From contig CAZFLN010000003.1 in the NCBI GenBank assembly GCA_964519905.1, positions 1,413-65,412 on the forward strand: a stretch of DNA of 64,000 nt, in the 5' to 3' direction. Source of the DNA: an uncultured Pseudomonadales bacterium. Lineage in GTDB: Bacteria; Patescibacteriota; Microgenomatia; UBA1400; UBA1396. A program made the translations under genes and the position numbers. Shown one piece after another: positions 12,756 through 47,404 of this stretch. The notes beneath the pieces are model-generated. The model did not search any database, had not been told where the DNA came from, and saw nothing but the letters and a program-made list of their open reading frames with translations. Each line of letters starts with the position of its first letter. The stretch's first letter is position 1.

Positions 12756-13586
12756 TTACGTCCTCATCCCTCTCTTTAATTTTTCACTCGACAGGATGAG
12801 GCTCTCGGCATATTTCCGCTCGGCGGTTTTGTTGTACTCGACTAAACTGCTGCGCAGCAGTTCGCCGCTCAGACCGAGTGAAGCCTGGATCTCCTGCGCC
12901 AGCGTGTAGTCGGTGTAGACGGTGTCGCTGGTGGCGTGGAAGATTCCAAGTGGTCGGTTCGTAAAGCACCAGCGGATCACTTCACAGAGCCACTCGATTG
13001 GGGTGAGGGTGTAGAAGTGGTCGTCAAAAAATGGACCAGTTTTTCCCGCCTGCAGAGCTCCGGCCATTTTGTGCCAGATGTCCGGTTTGGTAAATTCGTC
13101 TTGACGGTATGGGAAGTTAATACGCAAAATCGTATGATTTTGCGGCAGAATTTCAGTTACTTTTTGTTCTGCTTCTAATTTGGTTTCGGCGTACCAATCG
13201 ATCGGATTGGGCGTGTCGGTTTCCACGTATGGTGCTTTGCTGGTTCCATCAAAAACAAAGCCAGTCGACATATGTACGAGGTGCTTACCATGTTTGGCGC
13301 AGGCACGAGCAATGTTTTCGGTTCCCAGAACATTCACCTTATACACCAAACCGGTGCGGTCGCCTTTTTCCTTTTCTGCGGTATTGAGATCCGTGAATGC
13401 AGCCAGGTGAAGCACAACTGTGGCAGGAGAAGCGGCGACTGCCGCTTCGACTTGCTCAGCATTCGTAATGTCCACACCTTGTGACAAGTCAAGATTTTGG
13501 AAGGTGAATGCGTCACCCAGCATTTCTACGACTTTTGTGCCAATCAGGCCACTTAAACCAGTACCGAGAACAGGAATTTTTTCCAT
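12756..13586 (-). CDS. rmlD: dTDP-4-dehydrorhamnose reductase
   Basis: Internal Met start (MEKIPVLGTGLSGLIGTKVV). Rossmann GxxGxxG, YAETKLEAEQ (YxxxK) and overall RmlD-like layout. It sits 2 nt downstream of rmlC. Confidence 0.7.
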   Translation of the reverse strand: MEKIPVLGTGLSGLIGTKVVEMLGDAFTFQNLDLSQGVDITNAEQVEAAVAASPATVVLHLAAFTDLNTAEKEKGDRTGLVYKVNVLGTENIARACAKHGKHLVHMSTGFVFDGTSKAPYVETDTPNPIDWYAETKLEAEQKVTEILPQNHTILRINFPYRQDEFTKPDIWHKMAGALQAGKTGPFFDDHFYTLTPIEWLCEVIRWCFTNRPLGIFHATSDTVYTDYTLAQEIQASLGLSGELLRSSLVEYNKTAERKYAESLILSSEKLKRGMRT

Positions 13587-13588
13587 GG

Positions 13589-14119
13589 CTACTCGCGGCT
13601 CATTTCCCACATGGCTTCGCCAAAGTGGTTCCAAGGCAGGCGCTTTTCGTCTGGATTCTGTGGATTGAAGTGGTTGGTGACAAAGTAGATCAGGTTGACT
13701 GGTGTGCCCCAGATGTTCCCAGCTCCGTGGATCACGCCAGCCGGAATACGCAACAGGGTGTTGCTGCCTGCTCCCAGGACCATGCGAACGTGTTCGCCCT
13801 GGGTTGGTGATCCTTCACGAGCATCGATCATGTTGACCAACAAGCGATCGTACGGAGAAACGTACCAAAGGTCTTCTTGGTGTTCATGGAAGTGGAAAGC
13901 TTTAATGACACCTGGCAAAACCACTGACATATTCACTTGCTTGGCCTCAAATCCTTCCAAACCCTGGTACATGCCACCTTCAAAACGACCCAGTTCGGTA
14001 AAGTTTCCACTGTCATCGCGATGGAATGGAGGAGTGATGATTTCTACTCCTTCGATACGTGGTTTCTTAAGGTATTCCTGCACCGTAACGGCGGCTTGGA
14101 TTTCGGAAGCGATTGTCAT
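13589..14119 (-). CDS. rmlC: dTDP-4-dehydrorhamnose 3,5-epimerase
   Basis: Cupin blocks (GNFTELGRFEGGMYQG, VVLPGVIKAFHFHEHQEDLWYVSPYDRLLVNMIDAREGSPT, GAGNIWGTPVNLIYFVTNHFNPQNPDEKRLPWN). Confidence 0.85.
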   Translation of the reverse strand: MTIASEIQAAVTVQEYLKKPRIEGVEIITPPFHRDDSGNFTELGRFEGGMYQGLEGFEAKQVNMSVVLPGVIKAFHFHEHQEDLWYVSPYDRLLVNMIDAREGSPTQGEHVRMVLGAGSNTLLRIPAGVIHGAGNIWGTPVNLIYFVTNHFNPQNPDEKRLPWNHFGEAMWEMSRE

Positions 14120-14148
14120 TGTATTCCTTTCTGCTCTGGATTCAGAGA

Positions 14149-15165
14149 TTAGACTCGACCTTGGTATTGTTGTTCGTAGTACTTGGCGTACTCACCAGAT
14201 TTAATGCGCTGCCACCACTCTGGATGCTCTTGATACCAGTCAATGGTTTGACGCAAGCCTTCTTCGAGCGTGACACTCGGCTTCCAGCCCAGCTCTCGCT
14301 CGATTTTTGAAAAGTCTATGGCATAGCGGCGGTCGTGTCCAGGGCGATCCTGCACGAACTCGATATCGTCTTCGGTTTTGCCCATCAGCTGGAGGAGCAT
14401 TTTGACTAAATCTAAGTTAGAAACATCTTGCCACAATCCACCAATGCAGTAGGTTTCACCAACTTTTCCTCGGAGCAAAATTGCTTCGATGGCTCTGCAG
14501 TGGTCGACTACGAACAGCCAATCTCGCACATTTAATCCGTCGCCATAGACCGGCACTTTTTTCCCCTCCAGCAGATTCGTGATCGCCAAAGGAATCAATT
14601 TTTCTGGGAAGTGATACGGGCCATAATTATTGGCACAGTTACTGATCGTGATTGGAAGCCCATATGTGTCGTAGTAGGCGCGTACGAGGTGATCGGACCC
14701 AGCTTTACTGGCTGAGTATGGGCTGTGTGGATCGTAGGGAGTATTTTCGTCGAACTTGGTGTCGCTCCCAAGTTCCAGACTGCCGAAGACTTCGTCGGTA
14801 GAAATATGGTGGAAGCGTTTGATGTTGAGTTCGCGCGCCGCGTCCAACAGGACCTGGGTGCCGACTACGTTGGTAGTCACAAACGAGCTTGGATCAACAA
14901 TTGAGCGGTCCACGTGACTTTCGGCCGCAAAGTGCACCACCACGTCGCACCCAGTCATCGCGGCGCGCACTTGCTCTGGATTGCGGATATCTCCCTGTAC
15001 GAAAGTGTAGTTTGGGTTGTCTTGAACAGAGCTCAAGTTCTCCAAATTTCCGGCGTAGGTCAGGAGATCAAAGTTCACGATAGAGTCAGCTGGGTGCTGC
15101 TGCATCCAGTGCAAAATGAAATTTGAGCCGATAAATCCGGCTCCTCCGGTCACAAAAAGCTTCAT
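14149..15165 (-). CDS. rmlB: dTDP-glucose 4,6-dehydratase
   Basis: Start at MKLFVTGGAGFIGSNFILHW with an AGGAGA RBS. SDR blocks throughout (YSASKAGSDHLVRAY). The ORF-track N-terminal extension to 15276 is spurious. Confidence 0.85.
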   Translation of the reverse strand: MKLFVTGGAGFIGSNFILHWMQQHPADSIVNFDLLTYAGNLENLSSVQDNPNYTFVQGDIRNPEQVRAAMTGCDVVVHFAAESHVDRSIVDPSSFVTTNVVGTQVLLDAARELNIKRFHHISTDEVFGSLELGSDTKFDENTPYDPHSPYSASKAGSDHLVRAYYDTYGLPITISNCANNYGPYHFPEKLIPLAITNLLEGKKVPVYGDGLNVRDWLFVVDHCRAIEAILLRGKVGETYCIGGLWQDVSNLDLVKMLLQLMGKTEDDIEFVQDRPGHDRRYAIDFSKIERELGWKPSVTLEEGLRQTIDWYQEHPEWWQRIKSGEYAKYYEQQYQGRV

Positions 15166-15226
15166 ACGATTCTTTCTCCTCTTCTTGCATTGTACAGGAC
15201 GACGTTTATCTGGCAGAATAGGCGGG

Positions 15227-16387
15227 ATGACCGAATCATCTCGAACCAACTCAACGACAGACATACCTCTCACCAAAGGATCTAATGACCCTGGGGTAAC
15301 GGTACGTGTGGTCCTGGTCTCTTATAATACTGCCAAGCTTACCCTGCAAGCAATTGACTCAGTTTTACAGACAAAAATCCCGAAAAACAAGAAGCTGACG
15401 TACGAGATTGTCGTAATTGATAATGCCTCGAGCGATCGAACACTCGCTTCTTTGCGCCGAAAATATGCAGTACGGTTGAATCGCACTGCGCACAGAACTT
15501 GGCAAACAAAAGTGAGTTCTCCGGAAGTTTTTGAAAAACTGCCATCAGTGCAGCGTGATAGAGCCGTGGTCACCGAGATGCTTACTGGCACAATCGATGG
15601 GGTAAATATCTCCGTACTGTTGTCAAAAGAAAATCTTGGGTTTGGACGCGCCAATAATCTGGCTCTGGCTGGCTCCGATGCGCAGTTCTACTTTCTGCTC
15701 AATACCGATGCGCAAGTTTCGAGTAACACATTGCCTCGTCTTGTTTCGCATTTCAAGAAGCCACGAAAAGCCAGTACCTCTGTATTAGGTCGTGCTCGCC
15801 ATAAACTGGATAATCCAGGGATTATTGCAGCTGATCTTCGGTATCCAGATGGATCAACCCAGCGGCAAGGCGGAGATCTTCCAAATCTTTCAAATATTGG
15901 GAATTGGGTGCTTTTTATAGATGACATTCCTGTGTTGCAGCAATTTTTGTCTTCCTACCAACACCATGACTCTGAAATGCGGAGCTTGCGTCGTCGACCC
16001 CTCAGTAAAGTCGGGTGGGTTGGTGGCACAGCTATGATGATCTCAGCCGCCTGTGTCGATGAAATTGGTGGATTTGATGAACAGTTGTTCATGTACGGTG
16101 AAGACGTTGAACTGTGTCTCCGTGCCACAAAACGTCATTGGGATGTTGCGCTCGCCACAGACACGACAGTAATCCACGTTGGATCGGCGAGCGCCGGCAG
16201 CAAAAATGCTCTTCATGGCGAGATTCGAGGCTTGCTCCATATCTGGAAAAAACACAGATCATCTCAAGAACTATGGGTTCTTCGGCAGATTCTCAAACTT
16301 GGACTTCACATGCGGGTCTTTGTGTTTGGTATACTGAGGCGATATGGCCAACAACGGATTTATGCAGAAGCTTTGGAACTGGTTTGA
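15227..16387 (+). CDS. glycosyltransferase family 2 (WbbL-like rhamnosyltransferase subfamily)
   Basis: Start at MTESSR (the upstream ORF extension overlaps rmlB on the other strand). Blocks VVLVSYNTAKLTL, VVIDNASSDRT, ENLGFGRANNL and FDEQLFMYGEDVELCLR. Confidence 0.7.
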   Translation: MTESSRTNSTTDIPLTKGSNDPGVTVRVVLVSYNTAKLTLQAIDSVLQTKIPKNKKLTYEIVVIDNASSDRTLASLRRKYAVRLNRTAHRTWQTKVSSPEVFEKLPSVQRDRAVVTEMLTGTIDGVNISVLLSKENLGFGRANNLALAGSDAQFYFLLNTDAQVSSNTLPRLVSHFKKPRKASTSVLGRARHKLDNPGIIAADLRYPDGSTQRQGGDLPNLSNIGNWVLFIDDIPVLQQFLSSYQHHDSEMRSLRRRPLSKVGWVGGTAMMISAACVDEIGGFDEQLFMYGEDVELCLRATKRHWDVALATDTTVIHVGSASAGSKNALHGEIRGLLHIWKKHRSSQELWVLRQILKLGLHMRVFVFGILRRYGQQRIYAEALELV

Positions 16388-18203
16388 CAACTCGTTTTTG
16401 TTGTTTGCTACTATTTTCTTCGTTGCCTTCATTCCGCTGTACCCCAAGATTCCACTCACAGACTTAATTCCAGGCTACATTGTTCGCTTACGTCTTGAAG
16501 ACTTTTTTGTTGCCGCCGCCGCAGCTTGGTGGGGTATTCAAGTATTACGGAAAAAAATTCATTGGCGAACACCTCTCACAGCGGCTATTGGCGGATACGT
16601 TTTAATTGGTTTGATCTCAAATCTTTCTGGAATGTTTCTCACTCAAACCATTCCAACCACGTTTGTACATGTGGGTAAGTCGGCGCTGCATTGGGCACGA
16701 TATATCCAGTATTTTTCGTTATTTTTCATTGCGTATAGTGGTGTAAAAACACGTGCGCAAGGTTTGTTGGCTGTGAGTACCTCAATACTCACGGTTGTAC
16801 TGGTTGGAATCTACGGATATGGTCAGAAATACTGGTACTGGCCACTGTACTCAACTATGAACCGAGAATTTAGTAAAGGCTTGCGCTTGGTACTCTCTCC
16901 GTATGGTCGAGTTCAGTCTACGTTTGCTGGTCATTACGATCTTGGAGCCTATTTAGTAATCGTCATTCCATTTGCTTTAGCTCTCTTCTTTGTCTTGGGT
17001 AGGAGAGAGTTATTACCAAGCTGGATAAAAACCAGGTGGATTCGTCCACTTCGCATAGTAAGTTTTCTCGCTTGGTTTTCTGGTTTGTGGCTTTTGGTTA
17101 TGTCTGCTTCTCGTGCAGCGTTTGTTGGCTACTTGGCTGGATTAGGTCTAGTTTTGCTTATTTGGGCTTGGAAAATCAAAGATTGGCGCTGGTTCTTGAC
17201 TCGTTCCATTGGTTTTTTCTTATTTAGCACAATAATGCTTGTGTTTGTGGGTGATCTGAGAACGCGTTTTGCTCAGCTGATTGATCAAAATAAATATCCT
17301 CGCGTTCACACTGCGTATCACACGGTAAATGACTATGCCAATAATCCACAAAAATTCTTAGCTTTTGTTGGTGTAAATGTTGAAGTGTCTGATGAGCAAA
17401 AATCCCTACAACAACTTGAAGCAGAACTCAACGAACAAGGGATGACTTTGAGTGACACGCAACCATTGCCTCGTCCGAGTGATGTAACAGTTGATGTTCC
17501 ATTGAAGGAATTTGACCTTGATGATCCTGCAGCCACTTTGGCTGCAAATGTGATTCGCCAAGGAGATAAACTCGTGCAACAGCAGACATTTTCTGATTGT
17601 GCTTTGAAGAGAAGCTTATCTCTGTGCATTCGTTTAGAAACACTCTGGCCTCAAGCAATTCAAGGTTTCTTGAAGAATCCAGTCGTAGGTTCTGGCTACG
17701 CTACATTGACTAAGTCACAGGTTGAGCAGTTTACCGAAGCCGATAGCACCGATAATAATTTCCTTCGGACGCTTGGTGAAAATGGAGTGGTAGGATTTGC
17801 CTTCTTCTACGGAGCGATCGGATTGAGTATGTGGTTCTCTTGGAGAATGGCCTTTGATTCTTCCGATACTGTTCTGAGTTCGTTCGGTATCGCGGCGTTT
17901 GCTGGCGCAGTTGGTTTACTCTTGAACGCTGTGTACATCGATGTATTCGCCGCCTCGAAAGTCGCATATACTTTTTGGCTGATGCAAGGTGTGGTGCTCG
18001 CTGTTGGCGTGAAAGAGGGAGTTATTGCCCCAAAATTCGCATTTGAGCGAGCAAAACAATCGGAAGAACTGGCACAAATTTCTGCACTTTTGCAGAAAAT
18101 GGAGAGTAAGCGGACCGAGAAGTACCAAGATTCTCATTACTTGTCAGCTGCGAAGCAGTCTCAGAAGCGTCGAAAGCCAAAGAAGAACGTTCGTCATGTT
18201 TAA
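16344..18203 (+). CDS. O-antigen ligase/polymerase (Wzy_C) family polytopic membrane protein with a large inserted soluble region
   Basis: SASRAAFVGYLAGLGLVL motif. Many TM segments. A hydrophilic coiled-coil-like insert (~aa 330-450). C-terminal GSGYATLT...NNFLRTLGENGVVGFAFF block. Confidence 0.55.
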   Translation: MANNGFMQKLWNWFDNSFLLFATIFFVAFIPLYPKIPLTDLIPGYIVRLRLEDFFVAAAAAWWGIQVLRKKIHWRTPLTAAIGGYVLIGLISNLSGMFLTQTIPTTFVHVGKSALHWARYIQYFSLFFIAYSGVKTRAQGLLAVSTSILTVVLVGIYGYGQKYWYWPLYSTMNREFSKGLRLVLSPYGRVQSTFAGHYDLGAYLVIVIPFALALFFVLGRRELLPSWIKTRWIRPLRIVSFLAWFSGLWLLVMSASRAAFVGYLAGLGLVLLIWAWKIKDWRWFLTRSIGFFLFSTIMLVFVGDLRTRFAQLIDQNKYPRVHTAYHTVNDYANNPQKFLAFVGVNVEVSDEQKSLQQLEAELNEQGMTLSDTQPLPRPSDVTVDVPLKEFDLDDPAATLAANVIRQGDKLVQQQTFSDCALKRSLSLCIRLETLWPQAIQGFLKNPVVGSGYATLTKSQVEQFTEADSTDNNFLRTLGENGVVGFAFFYGAIGLSMWFSWRMAFDSSDTVLSSFGIAAFAGAVGLLLNAVYIDVFAASKVAYTFWLMQGVVLAVGVKEGVIAPKFAFERAKQSEELAQISALLQKMESKRTEKYQDSHYLSAAKQSQKRRKPKKNVRHV

Positions 18204-19794
18204 GCTTTCTGTGAAGATAAAAAACTGGATTTTTCTGCTCTCCTTGAGTGCGATTTTCCTCGTTTCGTTTGCTGTTCGACTCTCTGGATTTGATCGTCCA
18301 TTGGCTGATTGGCACTCTTTCCGTCAGGTTGATACTGCTTCAGTAACGAGAGAGTATCAAAAGCACGGTATCGATCCCCTTCGACCCAGGTACCACGATG
18401 TCTCGAACATCCAGTCTGGGTACGACAATCCAGAGGGTTGGCGCATGGTAGAGTTTCCACTTTTAAATATTGTGGTGGCCAGTATTTTGCAGTGGCAGCC
18501 AGAATGGAACTTGGTGGAAACTCATCGGGGAGTATCAATTTTTTCTTCGCTTGTATCGCTTTTGTGTTTGTCTTTTTTACTGCTCCGCTGGTATGGAAAG
18601 TTGGTGAGTTTGGTTGGTGCCTTTATTTTTGGTACGATGCCATTTAATATTTTCTTCTCGACTGTAGTCTTGCCAGAACCATTTATGGTGATGTGGGCAT
18701 TGTTAGCGGCAGTGTTTTTTACACTCTGGGCACAAGACAGTGCTCGGAAGTTTGATCAGGGTCAAGGAAAAGTGTTTATTTTTTCTGATATTTGGTTGCT
18801 TTTTGCTGGGCTGAGTTTTGCTGCTGCGCTGTTAGTAAAGCCGATGGCTGTTTTCTTTGTTCCAGTGTATGCCGCTGTAATTTGGCAGCAACGTCGTTGG
18901 AGTTGGCCTGCAATTGTCAAAGCAGGTATCGTTTTTTTCGCCGCTATTTTACCGCTCCTTTGGTGGCGCAATTGGATTCAAAATTTCCCAACAGGCATTC
19001 CTGCCTCGGATTGGTTGCTGAACGGAAATGGAATTCGTTTTCGTCCGGCTTGGTGGCGTTGGCTCTTTGGTGATCGCATTGGTCGAATGATGTTTGGTCA
19101 CTGGGGAGCATCTTTGGTGCTTCTTGGTGGTGTAGCAGCTTTGTGGAATTGGCCAAAGAAGCGCTTGTCCAGACAATCTTGGTTCGGTTGGGTGGTGTCA
19201 GAGCTTGATCGCCTTGTACGCACGGAGGGTTTGGTGCTGGCATTTGCCGTTGGGTGTCTTTCGTATCTCGTAATTTTTGCTTCTGGAAATGTTCAACATG
19301 ATTATTATCAAACACTTATTGTTCCAGCACTTTCGGTTTTAGCTGCTCGAGGAAGCGTGTGGCTTTTCAGGTTTGCTCGAAATGCTTGGCAGCAGGTGTG
19401 GATTGCCTTTGGGCTCTTGAGTGTCATTCTGTTTTCCTGGATGTTTGCATGGCATGACATTCAGCAGTTGTTTGCAATTAATAATCCGGCGGTCGTGCCT
19501 GCTGGCCAAGCGGTGCAGCGCCATGCGGGAGCTGATGATCTCGTAATTGCCTCATATATGGGTGACACGACACTTCTTTTTGCCAGTGATCGTCGTGGCT
19601 GGCCGATTGGTTTTTCGCTTGATCAAAAACTTGAGGCAGGAGCAGCGTGGTATCTTTCCACCGCGTTGGATGACGAAACACGAGATTTAATTGAACGATT
19701 TACATTGGTAGAGCAAACGGACCTGTATTCATTGATCGATCTGCGAAAAGTTTCTACTGAGTCGGCGGATGTTGGCCCACGGTTAAGAGAGTAA
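18196..19794 (+). CDS. GT-C fold membrane glycosyltransferase (ArnT/PMT-like)
   Basis: Start MFKLSVKIKNW overlaps the upstream stop. More than 10 predicted TM segments. Early loop with RQVD acidic motif. Hydrophilic C-terminal domain. Confidence 0.5.
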   Translation: MFKLSVKIKNWIFLLSLSAIFLVSFAVRLSGFDRPLADWHSFRQVDTASVTREYQKHGIDPLRPRYHDVSNIQSGYDNPEGWRMVEFPLLNIVVASILQWQPEWNLVETHRGVSIFSSLVSLLCLSFLLLRWYGKLVSLVGAFIFGTMPFNIFFSTVVLPEPFMVMWALLAAVFFTLWAQDSARKFDQGQGKVFIFSDIWLLFAGLSFAAALLVKPMAVFFVPVYAAVIWQQRRWSWPAIVKAGIVFFAAILPLLWWRNWIQNFPTGIPASDWLLNGNGIRFRPAWWRWLFGDRIGRMMFGHWGASLVLLGGVAALWNWPKKRLSRQSWFGWVVSELDRLVRTEGLVLAFAVGCLSYLVIFASGNVQHDYYQTLIVPALSVLAARGSVWLFRFARNAWQQVWIAFGLLSVILFSWMFAWHDIQQLFAINNPAVVPAGQAVQRHAGADDLVIASYMGDTTLLFASDRRGWPIGFSLDQKLEAGAAWYLSTALDDETRDLIERFTLVEQTDLYSLIDLRKVSTESADVGPRLRE

Positions 19795-19796
19795 AT

Positions 19797-21020
19797 ATGC
19801 GAATTTTAATGTTAACCCCCTACTTGCCGTATCCACTCTTGAGTGGTGGTCAGGTTCGATCGTACAATCTCCTCAAGGAAATTTCGAAGGAGCATGACGT
19901 AACACTTTTTTCGCTCGTTAAAGATTCATCTGAGAAGGAGAATATTCGAGAGCTGGAAAAATTTTGTTCTCGAGTTGAAGTGTTTCAACGAACTGCCAAG
20001 CCTTGGCATCCTCGAAACATTTTGCTGGCTGCGGTTACGCCATATCCGTTTGTAGTGACACGGAATTTAGTTTTGTCTCTGCGTGGTGCCATTGCGGAAG
20101 AGTTACAGCGTCAAAAATATGACCTGATTCACGTCGAAACGTTCTACATGATGCCAAGTATTCCTAAGACAACAACACCAACACTTCTGGTGGAGCAGAC
20201 CATTGAGTATCTTGGGTATCAGCAGTTTGCTGATCAGATAACGAAAAAGTTTCCCTTTCTTTCTCCACTACTTTCGGTTGATATTGCCAAGATTACATAC
20301 TGGGAACGACTCTACTGGCGAACCTGCAATCAGCTGATTACTGTGTCGGAGGATGATCGCGAGTTTATTCATGAACAGCTCCCAGAAATTCCACCGATAA
20401 AAGTGGTGAGCAATGGTGTTGACTCCGCTTTTTTTGCTGAGAAACCAAAGAAAGCCGACTCAATTCCGACACTGCTCTTTGTCGGAACGTTTCACTGGCG
20501 TCCAAATGTTGAGGCTGTGGAGTACTTGGTAGAAAAAGTCTGGCCTTTGGTAAAGAAACAGGTCCCCAATGCACGATTACGAATAGCTGGCGCGTCTCCG
20601 ACCGCCAAAATTCAATCTTTCCAAGAGAAAGATGCAAGTATTATTGTGACTGGACGTGTTCCAGATATTCGCGACGAGTATAGCCGAGCACATGTTCTCG
20701 TGGCTCCGGTGCTCAGTGGAAAAGGAACCCGGTATAAGGTTCTTGAGGCAATGGCCAGTAAGACGCCAGTAGTGGGGACAGAGATCGCACTTGAAGGTAT
20801 TGGCGCCGAACCAGAAACGGAGTGTCTCATTGGCAACACACCGGTTGAGTTAGCTGCGCAAACAGTTCGAGTTTTGCAAGATGTTTCGTTGCAGAAATCA
20901 CTGGGTGAAGCAGGAAGAAAGTTTGTAACCAAGAACTTTAGCTGGAAGAGTATTGGTCAAGATTTGTTGCGAATTTATGAGGAAACTGCCTCCGAAAATA
21001 AAGTGCCAGATTCTCAATGA
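19797..21020 (+). CDS. glycosyltransferase family 4
   Basis: MRILMLTPYLPYPLLSGGQVRSYNLLKEISK N-terminus. C-terminal GT4 block EAMASKTPVVGTEIALEGI. Confidence 0.75.
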   Translation: MRILMLTPYLPYPLLSGGQVRSYNLLKEISKEHDVTLFSLVKDSSEKENIRELEKFCSRVEVFQRTAKPWHPRNILLAAVTPYPFVVTRNLVLSLRGAIAEELQRQKYDLIHVETFYMMPSIPKTTTPTLLVEQTIEYLGYQQFADQITKKFPFLSPLLSVDIAKITYWERLYWRTCNQLITVSEDDREFIHEQLPEIPPIKVVSNGVDSAFFAEKPKKADSIPTLLFVGTFHWRPNVEAVEYLVEKVWPLVKKQVPNARLRIAGASPTAKIQSFQEKDASIIVTGRVPDIRDEYSRAHVLVAPVLSGKGTRYKVLEAMASKTPVVGTEIALEGIGAEPETECLIGNTPVELAAQTVRVLQDVSLQKSLGEAGRKFVTKNFSWKSIGQDLLRIYEETASENKVPDSQ

Positions 21021-23652: not shown

Positions 23653-23659
23653 AAAGCAA

Positions 23660-24805
23660 GTGGGCTCCGAACATCCAAAAGTAGCATTGGTGTATGACCG
23701 TGCTGCGGCGCAAGGTGGAGCGGAGCGGGTGCTCACAGCTTTGCGGGAAGGATTCCCTGATGCTCCGCTTTTTACATCTGTGGTAGTGCGGAAAGAAGCG
23801 CCTTGGACAGCTGGTTGGACAATTCGTACCAGCTGGATTCAGCGTTTGCCAGGTTTCTTCCAGCGGTATCGCTGGTGGGGCTGGGCAATGCCCTTTGTTT
23901 TCGAAGGTTTCGATTTTTCTCAGTATGATGTCGTGATTTCGGTCACTGGCGAGGCCGCCAAGGGAGTCATTACCCAGCCCCACCAGCTTCATATTTGTTA
24001 TCTCCTCACACCAACACGGTATCTCTGGTCTCATCGCCAAGAAGCGGAGAAATCTCTTTGGGGAGGCATCCGTCCGCTTGGCGCAAAAGTACTCGATGTT
24101 TTGCAGCGCTGGGACGCGGTTGCAGCACAACGCCCAGATGTCATTATTCCGATTTCTCGCTTAGTCGCTGAGCGAACGAAGCAGTATTATCAGCGAGCAA
24201 CGTTGGCCCCATTCTATCCGCCGTTGACGACACTGCCGACGGCTCAACAGCCAACGCTTGCCTTAGAGACTCCTTTTTTCTTTACCTGGGGAAGGCATGT
24301 GGCGTACAAGCGTTTTGATTTGGTCATTCGGGCTGCCATACAGCAGAAAGAGCAACTGGTTATCGCTGGGTATGGACCTGAGACCTCCAAGCTGCGTCGT
24401 TTGGCACGTAAGTATGATGCGTCTTCTCAGTATGTTCGCTTTGTGGGACGTGTTTCCGATGCGGAGCTCAAATGGTACTTGGAGCGGGCGAAGGCAGCAG
24501 TTTTCCCTCAGATCGAGGATTTTGGGATCGCCGCGGGCGAAGCCATCTTGGCAGGTTGCCCGGTAATTCTGCATGAAAAGTCTGGAGTAGCAGAAATTCT
24601 CACCAAGAATTCTGCAGTAAAAATTTCCGAAGAATCAGTAAAAAGTGTGGCTGAAGCAATGCAAGCAGTGAAGAAAAAACAGTGGTCAAGACTTGACATG
24701 CAGCGAGAAGCACGACAATATGCAGGGGCACGCTTTGTCAGGCAGTGGCAAGATCTCGTCGAGAAGCAATGGCGCGATCACCAGAAATCTTGGCAAACGC
24801 TTTAA
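23660..24805 (+). CDS. glycosyltransferase family 4 (start uncertain: GTG 23660, or an upstream alternative at 23549 overlapping the previous gene)
   Basis: KVALVYDRAAAQGGAERVLTAL N-terminus. E-x7-E motif EDFGIAAGE near the C-terminus. Confidence 0.6.
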   Translation: MGSEHPKVALVYDRAAAQGGAERVLTALREGFPDAPLFTSVVVRKEAPWTAGWTIRTSWIQRLPGFFQRYRWWGWAMPFVFEGFDFSQYDVVISVTGEAAKGVITQPHQLHICYLLTPTRYLWSHRQEAEKSLWGGIRPLGAKVLDVLQRWDAVAAQRPDVIIPISRLVAERTKQYYQRATLAPFYPPLTTLPTAQQPTLALETPFFFTWGRHVAYKRFDLVIRAAIQQKEQLVIAGYGPETSKLRRLARKYDASSQYVRFVGRVSDAELKWYLERAKAAVFPQIEDFGIAAGEAILAGCPVILHEKSGVAEILTKNSAVKISEESVKSVAEAMQAVKKKQWSRLDMQREARQYAGARFVRQWQDLVEKQWRDHQKSWQTL

Positions 24806-24816
24806 GAAAGGACAAC

Positions 24817-25929
24817 ATGAGTCAAATCGATACATCACACGTTTACGCGGTGGTTTTGGCAGGTGGCAGCGGTACTCGCTTGTGGCCAAAATCTCGAGAT
24901 AACACTCCAAAGCAATTTTTAAAACTTGGGGGTGATCGGACGCTGCTCCAGCAGACGGTTGACCGCATTTTAGACATGATCCCTTGGGAACGCGTGATTG
25001 TTGTCACCAACGAAAAATACGTCGAGGATGTACGCGCGCAACTTCCTGAGGTTCCTGCCGAAAATATTATTGCCGAACCTGCGAAACGCGACACCGCTTT
25101 AGCCATGGGACTTGGTGCCGTGATTGCCCAGAAGCGTGATCCGGAAGCAATTGTTGTTAACATGGCGTCTGACGCCGTGTTACAAGATGTCGAAGAATAC
25201 AAAAGAGTGCTCCTGGCAGCGATCGAACTCTCTGCCAAGAAAACACACCTCACAACAGTAGGTATTACTCCAAGTTCTCCCAATGTCAACTTTGGATATA
25301 TTAAGGCGGGTGAGTCTCTCGACACCATTGCTGGCTATCCAGTATTGGCAGTGAAGAGTTTTAAAGAAAAGCCAGATTTGCAAACCGCTGAACAGTTTTT
25401 AGCGGAAGGAGATTATTACTGGAACGCCAATATGTACACCTGGCATTCTCAGACGGCTTTGGCGGCCTTTCAAGAACATCAGCCTGAAATGTATGCTGCA
25501 CTCTTGAGAATTTCTGATGCGGTTGATACTCCAGCCTTTGAGTCCGTTTTGGCAAAAGAATATGAGGCAGCTGAAAAAGTGGCAATCGATGTTGCCATTT
25601 CGGAGAAAGTCTCAAACTTGGCGCTTTTCCCTGGTAATTTTGGTTGGGATGACATCGGTTTGTGGAGTACTGTTTTCGAGCTGGGCGAAAAAGACTCAAA
25701 CGGAAACGTGCAAGTTCGTGACGGCTTTGATACTGCCCCAGTTTTGTCTCTCGACTCGAAGAACAACCTGGTTGCGACCAACAAGCGTTTAGTCGCTCTG
25801 CTTGGGGTCGAAGATTTGGTTGTGATCGACAGCGGAGATGTTCTCCTGGTCTTGCCACGAAGTCGAGCCGCAGACGTAAAGAAAGTTGTTCAACAGCTCG
25901 AAGCTGATGGACAGCAGCAGTATTTATGA
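24817..25929 (+). CDS. manC: mannose-1-phosphate guanylyltransferase (ManC/CpsB-type nucleotidyltransferase)
   Basis: Start MSQIDTS with RBS aaagga. VVLAGGSGTRLWPKSRDNTPKQF signature. The upstream ORF-track extension is spurious. Confidence 0.7.
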   Translation: MSQIDTSHVYAVVLAGGSGTRLWPKSRDNTPKQFLKLGGDRTLLQQTVDRILDMIPWERVIVVTNEKYVEDVRAQLPEVPAENIIAEPAKRDTALAMGLGAVIAQKRDPEAIVVNMASDAVLQDVEEYKRVLLAAIELSAKKTHLTTVGITPSSPNVNFGYIKAGESLDTIAGYPVLAVKSFKEKPDLQTAEQFLAEGDYYWNANMYTWHSQTALAAFQEHQPEMYAALLRISDAVDTPAFESVLAKEYEAAEKVAIDVAISEKVSNLALFPGNFGWDDIGLWSTVFELGEKDSNGNVQVRDGFDTAPVLSLDSKNNLVATNKRLVALLGVEDLVVIDSGDVLLVLPRSRAADVKKVVQQLEADGQQQYL

Positions 25930-26546
25930 TGTACGAACAGCAAAAGCGGGTGCTCGATATCATCGTCGCTTGTGGTCTGGTAATTGCCTTTTTGCCGTTT
26001 TGGGTATTGGTACCGCTGCTTATTTGGTTTGATTCTGGTTGGCCTGTATTCTTTACTCATACCCGAGTTGGAAAAGGTGGAAAGCCGATTAAACTCTACA
26101 AGTTCAGATCTATGGTTCCAAACGCCGACCGAATTTTGCATGAACAGAATCCAGAACTTCTCAAACAGTTCAAGAAAAATGACTGGAAGCTTGAGCATGA
26201 TCCTCGAATTACTCGTTTGGGGAAAGCCTTGCGCGCGCTTACCATTGATGAGTTTCCACAACTTCTCAACGTTCTTCGTGGCGAGATGAGTATGGTTGGC
26301 CCTCGAGCCTACGTTCAGAAAGAACTGGACGAGCAAACCAAACGGTACCCAGAAACCAAGCCACTTGTAAAAGAGATCATGAGTGTGAAACCTGGTATTA
26401 CTGGGCCTTGGCAAGTTTCGGGCAGAAATGATGTTCCATTTGTCCAACGTGCCAAAATGGACTCCGATTATGCTCGACAGAAGAGCATTTATAATGATAT
26501 CCTAATACTACTGAAGACTCCCCGAGCTATGATTTCTCGGTGGTAA
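25926..26546 (+). CDS. initiating sugar-1-phosphate transferase (bacterial sugar transferase, WbaP/WcaJ C-domain type)
   Basis: KRVLDIIVACGLV, YKFRSM, DEFPQLLNVLRGEMSMVGPR and PGITGPWQVSGR blocks. ATGA overlap with manC. Confidence 0.8.
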   Translation: MMYEQQKRVLDIIVACGLVIAFLPFWVLVPLLIWFDSGWPVFFTHTRVGKGGKPIKLYKFRSMVPNADRILHEQNPELLKQFKKNDWKLEHDPRITRLGKALRALTIDEFPQLLNVLRGEMSMVGPRAYVQKELDEQTKRYPETKPLVKEIMSVKPGITGPWQVSGRNDVPFVQRAKMDSDYARQKSIYNDILILLKTPRAMISRW

Positions 26547-26585: not shown

Positions 26586-28628
26586 ATGTCACAAACTGCT
26601 GCACAGCCCAATCAGGACTGGAAACAGTCTGGATTCAAGAAAGCAAATACTTCTTCACCGGAAGAGCGTGAGGCACCACTCACCAGAGTGATTCCTGCGG
26701 TGCCTGTTGCGGCGACTTCTAGAATTTCTGGAAATGGTTCCAAGAAATTCTGGCATCGTTCTCGTAAGTTTTGGATGATTACTGGCTCCGTGGCTGCGGT
26801 TTTTGCTTTTGTTTTTGGAGTGGCTGCGGTTCTCGGTTTTTGGACCTACGGAAAAGTTCAGAAAATTCAGGCTGATGCCCAAACTATTCAGGCTGAAGGT
26901 CGATTGTTTTATGATGCCTTCAAAGGGCAGAACTTACCACAGTCTCGAGTTCATCTTGAGAATGTGAAGCAGCGTTTAGTGAGCGCTGACGAGACGTATC
27001 AAGAATTAAGCCTGTATAAAAATATTCCGTTTGCTAGTCGATACTACAACGACGGAACCGCGGGTATTACTGCGGCACATGCTGGTATTCGGGCTGGCGA
27101 AAAGTTCTTAGATGCTATCGAGCCACATGCTGATTTGCTGGGATTCTCTGGCGAGGAAGTTTACTTTGGCACTACCGAAGATCGTGTTGGTATGGTCTTA
27201 GAAACCCTGAGCCAAATTGCTCCGCAGCTTGATGGGATTGCTGAAGAAATCGATGTAGTAAAGCAAAACCTCGACACGATTGATCCGATGGATTATCCAG
27301 AGGAATTCCGCGGATATCCATTGCGACAATTGCTTATGCAGGCACGTGGTGGCGCGGAAGCGGCAGAAATTGCCTTAAACGAAGCTCGTCCAGCCTTGGA
27401 ACGTCTGCCCGCTATTGCCGGTGCGGAAGGTCGTCGCAAATACTTAGTCATTTTCCAAAACGATAATGAGCTCCGTCCAACGGGTGGATTTATGACCGCC
27501 TATGCCGTGGTTTTTGTGGAAGACGGAAAAGTCACGCCAGAAAAGTCAGACGACATTTACGAGCTCGACAAAAAATTCCGGAACAAACCAGCTATTCCCG
27601 CTATTCTTGGCAAGTATTTGACCACTGAGAGTACTTGGAACCTTCGAGATATGAACATGGATCCAGATTTTGCTACCTCTATGCAGACTTTCTATGAGCA
27701 TTACTCCAAACTTCCTGGCGAGCCGCAGGATATCGACGGCATTATCGCGGTCGATACAGAGCTGCTGAAGAAAGTGGTAGACGTAATTGGCCCAGTTGAG
27801 GTTCCTGGGTACGGAACTTTCTCAAGTCAGATTCTTCCACGATGTGATTGTCCGCAGATTATTTACATGTTGTCCGAAATTATTGACCGGCCAACTCCGT
27901 ACATCCGCGAAAATCGAAAAGGTATCTTGGCTCCAATGATGCAGTCGATTATTCAAAAGACCTATGCTTCTCCTCGAGAAACTTGGCCACAGCTGGCGCA
28001 GATTGCTTGGGAAGGGATCCAAGGCCGCCACGTGCAGATGTACTTCTTTAATGAGGAAGATCAAATCGCCGCCAAGGCAGTGAAAGCAGCTGGTGTTTTA
28101 CCAGATACTTCTGTTGAGGGTGATTTCTTAGCCGTTATTGATGCCAACTTGGCAGGGGCGAAGTCAAACTTATTTATCGACACCTCTGCTGAAGTACAGG
28201 TACAAAGTGTGGAAAATGGAGTAGTGACCAAGCAGGTCGAGATGACCTATCGCAACACGCATCCACCAAGCAATTGTAACCTCGAAGCTGGTGAACTCTG
28301 TTTGAACGGTTTGTTGAACGACTGGAGTCGCTGGTATGTGCCAAAAGGTGCGCAAGTTCAGGAAGCACTTGGGTTTAAGAATGAGTACACCATCGATACC
28401 AGTCACCCAGATTACGACGTGATCGAAGGATTCTTTACTGTCGCACCGCTGGCTCAAGCCAAGGTTCGTATCACCTACTCGGTTCCATATTCTGGCCCAG
28501 AGAATGCCTACGTCTTTACTCTGCAGAAGCAGGGTGGACTGGACATGATTTCTACGAACATTATTACGCCATGGGGGAGCGAAGAGATTGATTTGGTCGC
28601 TGACCGAACCTTCCGCTTCGCCCGCTAG
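26586..28628 (+). CDS. large single-pass membrane-anchored extracytoplasmic protein (possibly DUF4012 family)
   Basis: 680 aa. Disordered N-terminus, one TM (WMITGSVAAVFAFVFGVAAVLGFW) and a long soluble domain. It sits directly downstream of the priming transferase. Confidence 0.4.
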   Translation: MSQTAAQPNQDWKQSGFKKANTSSPEEREAPLTRVIPAVPVAATSRISGNGSKKFWHRSRKFWMITGSVAAVFAFVFGVAAVLGFWTYGKVQKIQADAQTIQAEGRLFYDAFKGQNLPQSRVHLENVKQRLVSADETYQELSLYKNIPFASRYYNDGTAGITAAHAGIRAGEKFLDAIEPHADLLGFSGEEVYFGTTEDRVGMVLETLSQIAPQLDGIAEEIDVVKQNLDTIDPMDYPEEFRGYPLRQLLMQARGGAEAAEIALNEARPALERLPAIAGAEGRRKYLVIFQNDNELRPTGGFMTAYAVVFVEDGKVTPEKSDDIYELDKKFRNKPAIPAILGKYLTTESTWNLRDMNMDPDFATSMQTFYEHYSKLPGEPQDIDGIIAVDTELLKKVVDVIGPVEVPGYGTFSSQILPRCDCPQIIYMLSEIIDRPTPYIRENRKGILAPMMQSIIQKTYASPRETWPQLAQIAWEGIQGRHVQMYFFNEEDQIAAKAVKAAGVLPDTSVEGDFLAVIDANLAGAKSNLFIDTSAEVQVQSVENGVVTKQVEMTYRNTHPPSNCNLEAGELCLNGLLNDWSRWYVPKGAQVQEALGFKNEYTIDTSHPDYDVIEGFFTVAPLAQAKVRITYSVPYSGPENAYVFTLQKQGGLDMISTNIITPWGSEEIDLVADRTFRFAR

Positions 28629-40726: not shown

Positions 40727-40774
40727 TTACAGAGTACTCTGTTCGGGAGTGAATGTTCGTTTTCTACCCCAGAC

Positions 40775-41155: not shown

Positions 41156-41195
41156 AAAAATAGGCTACACTTGCCCTTCACTTTTAAGGAGTTTT

Positions 41196-43085: not shown

Positions 43086-43139
43086 GAGCAGATTTGCTGT
43101 AAAGAACTCTGGTTGGTGTGTCACAATAGGGAGAGTCAT

Positions 43140-44087: not shown

Positions 44088-44127
44088 ATTCGCCTGAAAC
44101 TCTTGAGGTGTGCTAGGATTGGAGTAT

Positions 44128-45447
44128 ATGAAACTGACTGTTATTGGAACTGGATTTGTTGGTGTCGTGAGCGCAGCGGTGTTTGCTTCGTTTGGAAACG
44201 ACGTCTTTGGACTTGATATTGACGAAAAAAAGGTGGAAAGCCTTCGGGCTGGGAAAGTCCCCTTTTACGAACCTGGGCTTGAAGAACTCCTCCAGTCCGA
44301 ACAAGCTGCCGAGAGACTCCAATTTACCACCAGTTATGAATCCGCCGTTGCGGATGCAGATGTTATTTTCATCGCTGTTGGAACTCCTTCAGCCCCAGAC
44401 GGCAATGCCGATCTCCGTTTTGTGTTTGCAGCCGCAGAATCAGCAGCTCAGCATGCAAAAGAAGGTGCCGTTCTTGCCATCAAAAGCACTGTCCCACCAG
44501 GAACACTTGAAAAAATTCAGCCGCTTGTAGAAAAAGCAGCCAAGAATCACATAGTGTTGGCAAGCGTTCCAGAATTTTTACGAGAAGGAACAGCGGTGCA
44601 AGACACGCTGCATCCAGATCGAGTCGTGATTGGCTGTGACGACGAAGTGGCTCGAACCACATTAGCAACCCTGCATGAGCCACTGAACGCTCCGATTATT
44701 TTTACGAAGCCTGAGAGCGCTCAGATGGGCAAGTATGCTGCCAATGCGTATCTGGCGACTCGTATTAGTTTCATTAATCAAATCGCTGATTTGTGTGAGC
44801 AAAATGGCGCCGATGTGCAAGAAGTCATCGAAATTATTGGTCAAGATAAGCGTATTGGACAGCACTACTGGTTCCCTGGTCTCGGGTACGGTGGTTCCTG
44901 TTTTCCAAAGGATGTAAACGAGTTGGCTGCTTACTCTCGTTCTGTTGGTTTGGGTGGAAACTTGTTTAACAAAATTTCTGAGATTAATAAGGATAGAATC
45001 TATCAAAAACTTGATGAGGTGGAAAGCGTTATCGGTGGCTGGCAAGGTAAGACAGTCGCCGTTTTAGGGCTTTCTTTCAAGCCGAATACCGATGACATGC
45101 GAGAGGCTCCGAGTACGAAAGCAGTGCCTCACTTGGTGCAGCGCGGTGCAGTAGTTCAAACATATGATCCTATGGCTACAAAAGCTGCGAAGACTTGGTT
45201 TGCCGACCTTCAGACCGTGGTCTATGCAGATGAAATTTCACAAGCGCTCGAAGGTGCCGATGTTGTTCTGGCTTTAGTGGAGTGGCCAGAGATTATCGGT
45301 TTTGATTTTGTTTCCTGGAAGCAGCAATTTGCGGCCAATCGTGATGTGACCTTCTTTGATGCACGCAACCAATTCAACATGGAAGCACTGGAAAACGCGG
45401 GTTGGAACGTAGTGGCGATTGGCCGCGGAAAGAATCTTTCCGCATGA
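44128..45447 (+). CDS. ugd: UDP-glucose 6-dehydrogenase family (nucleotide-sugar dehydrogenase)
   Basis: MKLTVIGTGFVGVVSAAVFA Rossmann. Catalytic GGSCFPKD block. UDP-binding C-terminal domain. Confidence 0.85.
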   Translation: MKLTVIGTGFVGVVSAAVFASFGNDVFGLDIDEKKVESLRAGKVPFYEPGLEELLQSEQAAERLQFTTSYESAVADADVIFIAVGTPSAPDGNADLRFVFAAAESAAQHAKEGAVLAIKSTVPPGTLEKIQPLVEKAAKNHIVLASVPEFLREGTAVQDTLHPDRVVIGCDDEVARTTLATLHEPLNAPIIFTKPESAQMGKYAANAYLATRISFINQIADLCEQNGADVQEVIEIIGQDKRIGQHYWFPGLGYGGSCFPKDVNELAAYSRSVGLGGNLFNKISEINKDRIYQKLDEVESVIGGWQGKTVAVLGLSFKPNTDDMREAPSTKAVPHLVQRGAVVQTYDPMATKAAKTWFADLQTVVYADEISQALEGADVVLALVEWPEIIGFDFVSWKQQFAANRDVTFFDARNQFNMEALENAGWNVVAIGRGKNLSA

Positions 45448-46415
45448 TTTCTCCACACTCTCGAATTCTCATAACTGGGGCGGACGGTTTTGTTGGTTGG
45501 CATGTTTTGCAGCAGCTGCAGAAATCAGGGTATCAAGATCTGCACGTTACAACCTATTCTTCCTCGGAAAGACTCAAAGCTGCTTGTGGGGCGGAGAATG
45601 TCCATCAGTTAGACCTTACTGACACCAGCGCAGTTTTGGAATGTGTGAGAGAACTCCAGCCAGCAGCGATCCTGCATTTTGCTGCTTGGTCGGCAGTGGG
45701 CAGCAGCTTTGATAACGCCTCAAAAGTTATGAATATGAATACGGCCTTGCAGCTTTCTGTTCTTGAAGCGATTCGTCAAGCTGCACCACAAGCGCGACTC
45801 CTCTGTATTGGTTCAGCTCATGGGTATGGTCACATTTCAGCCGACCTCAATCCACATCAAATCACTGAAGAGTATCCATTGAATCCAGACAATCCCTATG
45901 CGGTTTCGAAAATTACACAGGAAATGTTGTCACGGGCTTACAAGTTTGCGTATGGTCTGGATATTGTTTTTGTACGTCCATTTAATCAAATTGGGCCTGG
46001 TCAATTGAATGAGTTTGCTGTTCCAAGTTTTGCTGAGCAAATTGCGGCGGTAGAACGAGGAGAGCAAAGTGTCGTTCAAGTTGGGAACTTAGACGCGGTG
46101 CGAGATTTTACCGATGTCCGAGACGCCGCTGTAGCGTATCAAATTCTGCTTGAATCAGGTATTTCTGGAGAGACCTACAACTTGGGATCCGGTGTGGGAA
46201 ATACCATGGAAGCTGTGCTCAACATTTTAAGAGGTCTTGCCGAGACAGAAGTACGTGTCGAAGTCGATCCCAGTCGTCTGCGTCCAAGTGATATTCCAGT
46301 ATTTGTAGCTGATGCTACTCGGCTCAGAGCACTTGGGTGGCAGCCTTCCTACTCGCTTGAGGACACGCTCCATGATATTCTCAAGGATATACGATCAAAA
46401 AAGAAACACGAATAA
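45444..46415 (+). CDS. rmd: GDP-4-dehydro-6-deoxy-D-mannose reductase (Rmd-like SDR)
   Basis: ATGA overlap with ugd. [34 protein letters not shown] and [16 protein letters not shown] blocks closely resemble Rmd rather than Fcl. It sits immediately upstream of gmd. Confidence 0.6.
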
Positions 46416-46429
46416 AAGAAGTGGAACGT

Positions 46430-47404
46430 ATGAAAAAAGCGTTTATTACCGGAATCACCGGACAAGATGGATCCTACTTGGCGGAGTTATTGCTGAGCAA
46501 AGGATACAAAGTATATGGCCTGACTCGACGAACCAGCACTCAGAATTTTGAGCGTATCGAGAGCATAGTCGAGAATCCGAACTTGGAATTGGTTTCTGGA
46601 GACTTGACCGATCAACACTCCATGACCCAAGCTCTCTCCGAAATTCAGCCAGATGAAGTATATAACTTAGCAGCTCAGTCATTCGTAAAGACCAGCTGGG
46701 ACCAGCCAGTTTTGACCGGTGATGTTACAGCTATTGGTGTGACTCGATTGCTGGAAGCAGTTCGCTTGGCTTGTCCTCAAGCAAAAGTGTATCAAGCTTC
46801 ATCTTCTGAAATGTTTGGTCGCGTGATGGAGGTTCCTCAATCTGAGCAGACACCTTTCTATCCACGTTCTCCGTACGGTGTTGCCAAGGTATATGGTCAC
46901 TGGATCACAGTGAACTACCGCGAATCATATGACATGTTTGCTGTCTCTGGAATTCTCTTTAATCATGAATCACCACGTCGTGGCTTGGAGTTTGTCACTC
47001 GTAAGATTAGTTACAACGTGGCACGTATTGCGCTTGGGTTACAAAAAACGGTCAAGCTGGGCAATCTTGATGCCAAGCGAGACTGGGGATATGCCAAGGA
47101 TTACGTAGAAGCTATGTGGCTCATGCTGCAGCAGGAAAACCCAGATGATTACGTCATCGCTACTGGTGAAACCCATTCAGTTCGCGAGTTTGTGCAAAAG
47201 GCCTGTGCTGTAGCGGGAATTGCTGATTGGGAATCTATTGTTGAGATCGATGAACGATTTATGCGACCGGCAGAAGTTGATTTGTTGATCGGAGATCCAA
47301 GTCACGCTAAGAACCAATTAAACTGGGAACCAAAAACTTCTTTCGACGAACTTGTGCAACTGATGGTAGAAGCCGATTTAGAAAGTATTCGGAAGACACT
47401 GTAA
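46430..47404 (+). CDS. gmd: GDP-mannose 4,6-dehydratase
   Basis: [30 protein letters not shown] and [18 protein letters not shown] blocks. An alternative GTG at 46421. Confidence 0.9.

Follow-up and report, generated by a model that had tools for sequence, protein, structure and literature searches.

Whether a single bacterium of the Candidate Phyla Radiation (CPR) can make both enantiomers of rhamnose, and whether these would enter one glycan or two, is the question raised by a 64,000-nucleotide stretch of contig CAZFLN010000003.1 (assembly GCA_964519905.1), here termed the window. It carries genes resembling those for dTDP-L-rhamnose (the L-arm) and those for GDP-D-rhamnose (the D-arm). An earlier reading of the letters alone, the sequence-only reading, had reported that the two sets coexist, and at the level of enzyme families this is borne out. 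rmlB, the RmlC-like and RmlD-like genes, manC and the rmd-gmd pair are all present at the coordinates given in the table, with homology far above chance. Gene calls are based on NCBIfam equivalog cut-offs, Pfam domains and sequence matches to the PDB. Judging by named best matches, the source is an ultra-small, Woesebacteria-like member of the Patescibacteria (CPR); the named relatives closest to its UvrB are from Candidatus Woesebacteria (68% identity), with other Patescibacteria next in rank.

An open reading frame (ORF) listing combined with family scans resolves the region from 12.7 to 54.4 kb into two glycan loci with housekeeping genes between them. Locus A (12.7–28.6 kb) contains three minus-strand genes, the L-arm, divergent from a plus-strand series, while locus B (44.1–54.4 kb) is headed by ugd and the D-arm genes rmd and gmd. 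Approximately 15 kb of housekeeping genes (28.6–44.1 kb) separates the loci, and the two arms are ~29 kb apart both in the window and in its closest relatives. The family membership of each enzyme, the operon structure, and the conservation of both loci in relatives are direct observations. The reading favoured here, with moderate confidence, is that two 6-deoxyhexose branches feed two separately organised envelope-glycan loci, with D-rhamnose the likely product of the D-arm and L-rhamnose that of the L-arm.

Under this scheme, ManC of locus A would produce GDP-mannose, which Gmd would convert to GDP-4-keto-6-deoxy-D-mannose. The Rmd-family reductase would then reduce C4 without epimerisation, giving GDP-D-rhamnose, and Ugd would supply UDP-glucuronate to locus B. 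In the other branch RmlB would convert dTDP-glucose to dTDP-4-keto-6-deoxyglucose, the dTDP-glucose having to come from an enzyme encoded beyond the window. The cupin and the RmlD-like reductase would complete a dTDP-6-deoxy-L-hexose, most likely L-rhamnose, for use by the locus A machinery, which consists of Leloir GT2/GT4, Wzy-like and phosphoglycosyltransferase enzymes.

The D-arm depends on the identity of the protein encoded at 45444–46415, which the sequence-only reading had called Rmd and not the GDP-L-fucose synthase Fcl. Among all PDB sequences its top match is the Rmd of Aneurinibacillus thermoaerophilus (2PK3; E 1.5e-61, 211.6 bits, full length) and its second is the Rmd of Pseudomonas aeruginosa (6X3B; E 2.3e-40, 142 bits). 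Structures of Gmd, RmlB, and GalE come next at E ~1e-25 (best Gmd 93 bits), and those of Fcl reach only E ~1e-14 and 57 bits. The alignment to characterised Rmd and Fcl that had been proposed as a check gives 39% identity to the A. thermoaerophilus Rmd and 33% to that of P. aeruginosa, with lower values for E. coli Fcl (26%) and Gmd (25%). A neighbour-joining tree was built from the candidate, both Rmds, E. coli Fcl (a reference sequence 100% identical to 1BSV), the Gmd, RmlB, and RmlD-like proteins of the window, and ten metagenomic homologues. It places the candidate and its CPR homologues beside the two characterised Rmds and outside Gmd, Fcl, and RmlB.

Residue-level comparison agrees. The epimerase pair of Fcl, Cys109 and His179 in E. 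coli numbering, is replaced by His (within GSAHGYG) and Phe (within NEFAVP), as in the Rmds. The cofactor motif TGADGFVG, together with the Ser (GSAHGYG) and YAVSK elements of the catalytic triad, lines up with 2PK3 and 6X3B. Both of the ten-residue blocks cited for the original rmd call are present in the translation, which shows a block of 15 residues and one of ten alongside the cofactor motif and the Ser. The candidate thus carries extended short-chain dehydrogenase/reductase (SDR) motifs, is closer to Rmds than to their paralogues, and is coupled to gmd and a GDP-mannose supply. An extended SDR beside gmd occupies the usual place of fcl, and an Fcl/WcaG enzyme there would direct the GDP branch to L-fucose. 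However, the NCBIfam Fcl equivalog (NF047922, GDPFucSynFcl) is not reached, at 78.7 bits against a cut-off of 500. Given this score, the PDB ranking, the absence of Cys109/His179 and the tree position, the Fcl reading is rejected as extremely improbable, and the protein is assigned by sequence to the Rmd family, in agreement with the earlier call.

The closest characterised homologue, the Rmd of A. thermoaerophilus L420-91T (~39% identity), acts with Gmd in the synthesis of an S-layer glycan. It has the motifs RxFNxIGPGQ and VGNLxAVRDF and the Ser-Tyr-Lys triad in common with the window protein, and its gene likewise adjoins gmd. Like A. thermoaerophilus, the source organism, as a CPR bacterium, would lack lipopolysaccharide. 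The two systems differ in gene order, which in the window is ugd-rmd-gmd followed by genes for enzymes resembling dolichol-phosphate mannose synthase (DPMS) and for GT-C enzymes, and in that the product of the window enzyme is a predicted one. They also differ at the position aligned to the catalytic Glu of Gmd, which is Glu in 2PK3 but His in the window protein.

By these comparisons the product of the reductase is most likely GDP-D-rhamnose, with the final stereochemistry deduced from homology. The same enzyme could deliver hydride to the opposite face of C4, as does GTS/Tld of Aggregatibacter, and form GDP-6-deoxy-D-talose, leaving the organism without D-rhamnose. Rmd and 6-deoxy-D-talose synthase, whose product is the C4 epimer, are closely related, and we know of no residues that tell the two apart. 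Two points count here against the D-rhamnose assignment: the C4 stereochemistry of an Rmd-like product (rhamno or talo) cannot be read from sequence, and annotation does not separate these close homologues, a genuine rmd of P. syringae being automatically labelled 'GDP-6-deoxy-D-talose 4-dehydrogenase'. An identity of only 33–39% to the two characterised Rmds also leaves room for a different product. Nonetheless, the nearest characterised enzymes are both D-rhamnose-forming Rmds aligned over their full length, rmd and gmd are adjacent as in known D-rhamnose loci, and 6-deoxy-D-talose is far rarer in described glycans. The talose product is therefore regarded as distinctly unlikely. The earlier designation of these genes as GDP-D-rhamnose genes stands as to the Rmd family, while as to the product GDP-6-deoxy-D-talose would also fit the sequence.

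The partners of the candidate support its place in a GDP-linked pathway. The stop codon of ugd overlaps the start codon of rmd (ATGA), as seen directly in the sequence, and gmd starts 5–14 nt past the rmd stop. ugd-rmd-gmd is one tightly packed, translationally coupled unit at the head of locus B. ManC consists of an NTP_transferase domain and a ManC β-helix domain and is without a phosphomannose isomerase (PMI) domain; owing to this short form it scores 304 bits over the transferase part of TIGR01479, under the cut-off of 373. Its gene holds the only GGxGTRL nucleotidyltransferase motif in the six frames of the window.

In the L-arm, RmlB surpasses the equivalog cut-off of TIGR01181 (365.1 bits) and is assigned to the family on that basis, with dTDP-glucose as its presumed substrate; orthologues in related loci have 337 residues. 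From rmlB through the cupin gene to rmlD, the intergenic gaps are 29 nt and 2 nt, assuming that rmlD starts at Met 13586. The RmlD-like translation shows a GxxGxxG-type motif and YxxxK, and in the PDB it is matched best by dTDP-4-dehydrorhamnose reductases (E 1e-22). For the cupin, profile searches find true RmlCs as the nearest solved relatives (E 1.6e-19). Its AlphaFold model (pLDDT 93.3) has as top Foldseek matches exclusively RmlC-type dTDP-/GDP-sugar 3- or 3,5-epimerases with TM ~0.7. In a Pacebacteria-type relative (L010) the slot between rmlB and rmlD holds a canonical-type RmlC (RGFHAEGWNK; 91.7 bits). As the cupin combines an RmlC-type fold with the same slot, it probably carries out the epimerisation, perhaps through a rearranged set of catalytic residues. 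Specificity of the cupin and the RmlD-like reductase for particular nucleotide sugars is inferred, and L-rhamnose as the product of the L-arm is a sequence-derived assignment of moderate strength.

Several observations weigh against that assignment. The cupin scores 47.7 bits with TIGR01221, under the cut-off of 155.75, and the RmlD-like protein 144.2 bits with TIGR01214, under the cut-off of 224. There is no rmlA in the window, where the sole GGxGTRL motif in six frames is that of manC, the motif is likewise absent from nine related loci, and rmlA does not lie beside the trio of rmlB, cupin and rmlD-like genes in any relative examined. Within the cupin, canonical Lys73, which stabilises the enolate, is replaced by Asp83, canonical Tyr133, the catalytic acid, by Phe151, and the Arg of the DxRGxF motif is lost, from which it follows that the chemistry may differ from that of a classical 3,5-epimerase. 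These residues were mapped by profile alignment to 2B9U, 7PVI, and 3RYK. In a 100-member family alignment, Asp occupies the Lys73 position in 99 sequences and Phe the Tyr133 position in all 68 long CPR-type members, with Tyr133 kept in 31 of the 32 others. The name rmlBCD given in the sequence-only reading consequently needs qualification. It is sound for the rmlB equivalog, and the RmlC and RmlD family matches are real, but the set is without rmlA in the window, two of its members fall under their cut-offs, and the cupin is without Lys73 and Tyr133.

Instead of L-rhamnose the trio may form a different 6-deoxyhexose, 6-deoxy-L-talose or 6-deoxy-D-allose for example, or the cupin and the reductase may act on another nucleotide sugar. 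Without Lys73 and Tyr133, the cupin might epimerise a single centre or follow another mechanism, perhaps a metal-assisted one. In the long-form cupins HxHxxxxD adjoins an exact match to metal-binding motif 2 of cupins (PxGxxHxxxN). Fold neighbours include the 3-mono-epimerases ChmJ and NovW, the GDP-sugar epimerases DdahB, MlghB, and WbcA, and the Zn-binding cupin of CapF. Annotated rfbC genes are, moreover, dispensable for rhamnose in Synechocystis. Set against this are the position of the cupin gene, flanked by a true rmlB and the gene for an RmlD-family reductase, the profile similarity to true RmlCs, and the retention of the catalytic base His (His63 in Salmonella numbering) as H76. In addition, loss of Tyr133 in the long forms goes together, in all 68, with an invariant Tyr16 in an N-terminal extension, suggesting relocation of the catalytic residue, not loss. 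A product other than L-rhamnose is hence possible but rather unlikely, and L-rhamnose is retained as the preferred product of the L-arm.

The pattern in the cupin subfamily suggests that the catalytic Tyr has moved to the N-terminal extension, that catalysis is metal-assisted, or both. The combined reading, in which Asp or a metal site has also taken the place of the enolate-stabilising Lys, is a doubtful one. The covariation of Tyr16 and Phe151 is perfect yet comes from essentially two clades, making it suggestive and not statistical. NCBI names this subfamily of PF00908 only as 'family protein'. It includes the SpsL-type proteins of Bacillus; in Bacillus sps operons the SpsL-like relatives of the cupin bear the annotation RmlC, a point in favour of the RmlC reading. 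The SpsL-type proteins, as in the spsI-L spore-crust rhamnose operon of Bacillus subtilis, are 36–45% identical to the window cupin. They share with it the invariant residues K73, H76, H78, Q81, D83, W85, H131, and Y145, with Asp at the canonical Lys73 position. They differ in being ~151 residues long without the Tyr16 extension and in keeping Tyr133 and DxRGFF, where the CPR form has Phe151 and DD[STG]GNF. The HxH motif also led to consideration of the cupin as an FdtA/QdtA-type 3,4-ketoisomerase; this was rejected, as neither that family nor a structure of it appears among the Pfam, PDB-profile or Foldseek matches.

The destination of the two sugars was approached through the surrounding machinery. 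Locus A is a heteropolysaccharide locus of GT2, GT4, Wzy-like and phosphoglycosyltransferase genes. Locus B, owing to its composition (DPMS-type, GT-C, UbiA-family, and WecA-like proteins), indicates a lipid-carrier and GT-C extracytoplasmic glycosylation system. Because the machinery of the two loci differs, two products are favoured. By analogy with P. aeruginosa, the D- and L-sugars would reside in different glycoconjugates. The window resembles P. aeruginosa in having both pathways in one genome, a homologous Rmd (6X3B), and a WecA/WbpL-type initiator near the D-arm. P. aeruginosa, unlike the window, has a complete rmlBDAC set with rmlA and a canonical RmlC, whereas the cupin of the window is non-canonical and no rmlA lies within the 64 kb. 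The D-rhamnan of P. aeruginosa, the common polysaccharide antigen, owes its synthesis to GT4 enzymes and its export to an ATP-binding cassette transporter, in contrast to the DPMS-like and GT-C enzymes that accompany the D-arm here.

The sequence-only reading had suggested a complex rhamnan or a heteroglycan with both enantiomers, and the gene layout is not without support for such a polymer. manC, which the D-arm needs, is split from gmd-rmd. Its neighbours in locus A include three GT4 genes, and the Pseudomonas D-rhamnosyltransferases WbpX, WbpY, and WbpZ belong to family GT4. Furthermore, in the Pacebacteria-type relative rmlB-rmlC-rmlD stand immediately upstream of ugd-rmd-gmd, within 6 kb and beside an LCP ligase and a flippase. 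The split and this adjacency leave room for a single polymer. NCBIfam scans gave no rhamnosyl- or mannosyl-specific assignment for the locus A glycosyltransferases, which counts against the favoured reading and against a shared polymer alike. Against a shared polymer are the ~29 kb between the arms and the division between Wzy, phosphoglycosyltransferase and Leloir enzymes on one side and DPMS-like, GT-C and WecA-like enzymes on the other. P. aeruginosa, the best-known carrier of both pathways, places the two sugars in different molecules. A mixed D/L-rhamnan or heteroglycan is thus considered unlikely and, with the arms in different, separately conserved loci that have different machinery, the earlier suggestion of one was speculative. 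Two glycoconjugates are preferred.

A more specific proposal for locus B is that the ugd-rmd-gmd-DPMS-GT-C block encodes an extracytoplasmic glycosylation system whose lipid-linked donor is polyprenyl-phosphate-D-rhamnose, formed from GDP-D-rhamnose by the DPMS homologue. This is doubtful, and to our knowledge no polyprenyl-phosphate-linked D-rhamnose (6-deoxy-mannose) donor has been described. The DPMS-type protein matches the dolichol-phosphate mannose synthase of Pyrococcus furiosus (5MLZ) over its full length at E 1.9e-41, with ArnC at only 8.5e-15. The protein at 51004–52332 is 44% identical (E 3e-100) to a protein in one of the relatives (L006) that carries PF26314. The 4-amino-4-deoxy-L-arabinose (arn) pathway, as an explanation for ugd, two SDRs, an ArnC-like and an ArnT-like protein, was rejected since the second SDR passes the Gmd equivalog and the GT2-GtrA protein favours DPMS over ArnC. 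Locus B is also comparable to three-component systems for extracytoplasmic glycosylation, a concept described in PMC11127046 and PMC8035078.

With its DPMS-type, PMT_2, MptA_B-family and UbiA proteins, locus B resembles the lipomannan and arabinan machinery of Corynebacterineae (the PPM synthase Ppm1, the GT-C mannosyltransferases MptA/MptB, and the UbiA-type DPPR synthase), and the logic of the block recalls lipoglycan synthesis in actinobacteria. The corynebacterial systems differ in having no heading ugd-rmd-gmd block, and the window differs from them in being of CPR origin and in that no DprE1/DprE2-like epimerase gene was seen in it. As a separate observation, the UbiA-family protein scores above the cut-off for decaprenyl-phosphate phosphoribosyltransferase, a hint that this CPR bacterium may use a polyprenyl-phospho-pentofuranose donor.

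Both loci recur outside the window. The gene order of locus A, including the missing rmlA, is kept in the Woesebacteria assemblies GCA_021208605.1 and GCA_964447905.1. The locus B block (ugd-rmd-gmd-GT2/GtrA-PMT_2-GT2) is found in six further Patescibacteria loci (L006–L011): in GCA_964447905.1, two Logan assemblies, GCA_964511175.1, an ENA assembly with a protein that NCBI names Candidatus Pacebacteria, and a 1.17-Mb contig of GCA_016861085.1. An MptA_B-family gene follows the block in five of the six (not in L011), with a UbiA and/or WecA-like gene in some, and the rmd-gmd pair is kept in eight loci. In GCA_964447905.1 the layout of A then B seen in the window is repeated on a single 66.7-kb contig. 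As other Patescibacteria assemblies likewise contain each locus and the two in combination, the co-occurrence of the D- and L-arms is a trait of the lineage and not an accident of the window.

This distribution bears on the earlier remark that D-rhamnose is rare, which fails at the gene level. All of the Patescibacteria relatives examined have a ugd-rmd-gmd block with an Rmd-like gene, and the Rmd candidate has 45% or higher identity to at least 120 protein clusters. D-rhamnose itself has been chemically established in only a few cultured bacteria. One survey concluded that both rhamnose pathways occur only in Pseudomonas, a claim that depends on its threshold of 90% or higher similarity to a pair of reference Rmds (10.1101/854612). 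A study of Patescibacteriota phages reports rmlB, rmlD, gmd, and rmd among their auxiliary genes (PMC12911398), and in a full-text library search this study, present as preprint and journal version, was the only work to mention D-rhamnose together with 'Candidate Phyla Radiation'.

Genomes with both rhamnose pathways are already known, for example in Pseudomonas, and no new kind of system is present here. Public pipelines have annotated the individual genes, and the public protein collection already includes both the Rmd candidate and the cupin (from a 77,420-bp NCBI contig). The interest lies in the repeated presence of both gene sets in CPR genomes of Woesebacteria and Pacebacteria type, which is a pointer to the envelope decoration of these uncultured episymbionts. 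The finding also singles out the ugd-rmd-gmd-DPMS-GT-C block for biochemical work. More unusual, both as hypotheses, are two by-products of the analysis: this recurrent block with its possible polyprenyl-phosphate-D-rhamnose donor, and the rearranged RmlC subfamily.

Table 1. Genes of the two glycan loci, with positions in the 64,000-nucleotide window
Feature	Coordinates	Strand	Basis
RmlD-like NAD(P)-dependent 4-ketoreductase, likely start Met17 at 13586	12756..13634 (ORF)	-	PF04321, 145.6 bits
RmlC-like divergent cupin (sugar-nucleotide 3,5- or 3-epimerase fold)	13589..14119	-	PF00908, 53.4 bits (cut-off 27)
rmlB, dTDP-glucose 4,6-dehydratase, likely start Met 15165, 338 aa	14149..15276 (ORF)	-	TIGR01181, 481.5 bits
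GT2	15116-16387	+	Pfam
Wzy_C-like polymerase/ligase	16344-18203	+	Pfam
PMT-like GT-C	18025-19794	+	Pfam
GT4	19797-21020	+	Pfam
GT2	21017-21946	+	Pfam; sub-threshold TIGR01556, 35 bits
Small membrane protein	21915-22472	+	Locus A series
GT4	22486-23652	+	Pfam
GT4	23549-24805	+	Pfam
manC, short-form mannose-1-phosphate guanylyltransferase, likely start 24817	24745..25929	+	TIGR01479; PF00483 + PF22640
Small polyprenyl-phosphate hexose-1-phosphate transferase, WbaP/PglC-type initiator	25926..26546	+	PF02397, 196.9 bits
DUF4012 envelope protein, end of locus A	26586..28628	+	PF13196, 91.9 bits
ugd, UDP-glucose 6-dehydrogenase	44110..45447	+	TIGR03026, 427.5 bits (cut-off 189.8)
rmd candidate, GDP-4-keto-6-deoxy-D-mannose 4-reductase, Rmd family	45444..46415	+	2PK3/6X3B matches, neighbour-joining tree, motifs
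gmd, GDP-mannose 4,6-dehydratase	46421..47404	+	TIGR01472, 459.9 bits (cut-off 415), full-length
DPMS-type polyprenyl-phosphate glycosyltransferase (GT2 + GtrA/DPMS transmembrane domain)	47441..48667	+	PF00535 + PF04138
PMT_2 GT-C glycosyltransferase	48655-50283	+	Pfam
GT2, 253 aa	50301-51062	+	Pfam
GT-C-like membrane protein, MptA/B-like	51004-52332	+	Orthologous to PF26314 MptA_B_family proteins
UbiA-family polyprenyl-phosphate phosphoribosyltransferase	52304-53254	-	NF008977, 239.8 (cut-off 234); PF01040
WecA/MraY-family initiating transferase	53200-54363	-	TIGR02380, 74 bits; PF00953

The C-terminal domain of the putative initiator of locus A is also matched by TIGR03025 and TIGR03022. The likely starts of rmlB and of the first GT2 gene on the opposite strand are ~60 bp apart (15165–15227), implying a compact bidirectional promoter region for locus A. 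Directly downstream of the RmlD-like gene is an ORF of 412 residues (11516–12754, minus strand) with no Pfam match. The corresponding slot in relatives holds an unannotated ORF, of 337–349 residues in L003 and L005 and 256 residues in L004.

The genes between the two loci comprise recO, an aminoacyl-tRNA synthetase gene, tRNA-Thr, a gene for a VIT1 protein, uvrB, msrAB, and lexA. They also include miaA, a response regulator gene, xerC/D, and genes for a tRNA-binding protein, FtsH, and a 5'-3' exonuclease.

Beyond locus B, a tmRNA gene at 56403–56788 (plus strand) matches the full-length Rfam model RF00023 at 77 bits and is absent from the ARAGORN list for the window. Directly past tRNA-Ser (58270–58357) the GC content drops from ~0.49 to 0.37–0.40, and the low-GC stretch lies within 58000–62500. 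Its genes encode a class IV aminotransferase, a GFO/IDH/MocA-like oxidoreductase, an S51 peptidase, and a homologue of WelO5-like 2-oxoglutarate-Fe(II) oxygenases or halogenases (59326–60138, minus strand). This stretch may be a horizontally acquired island.

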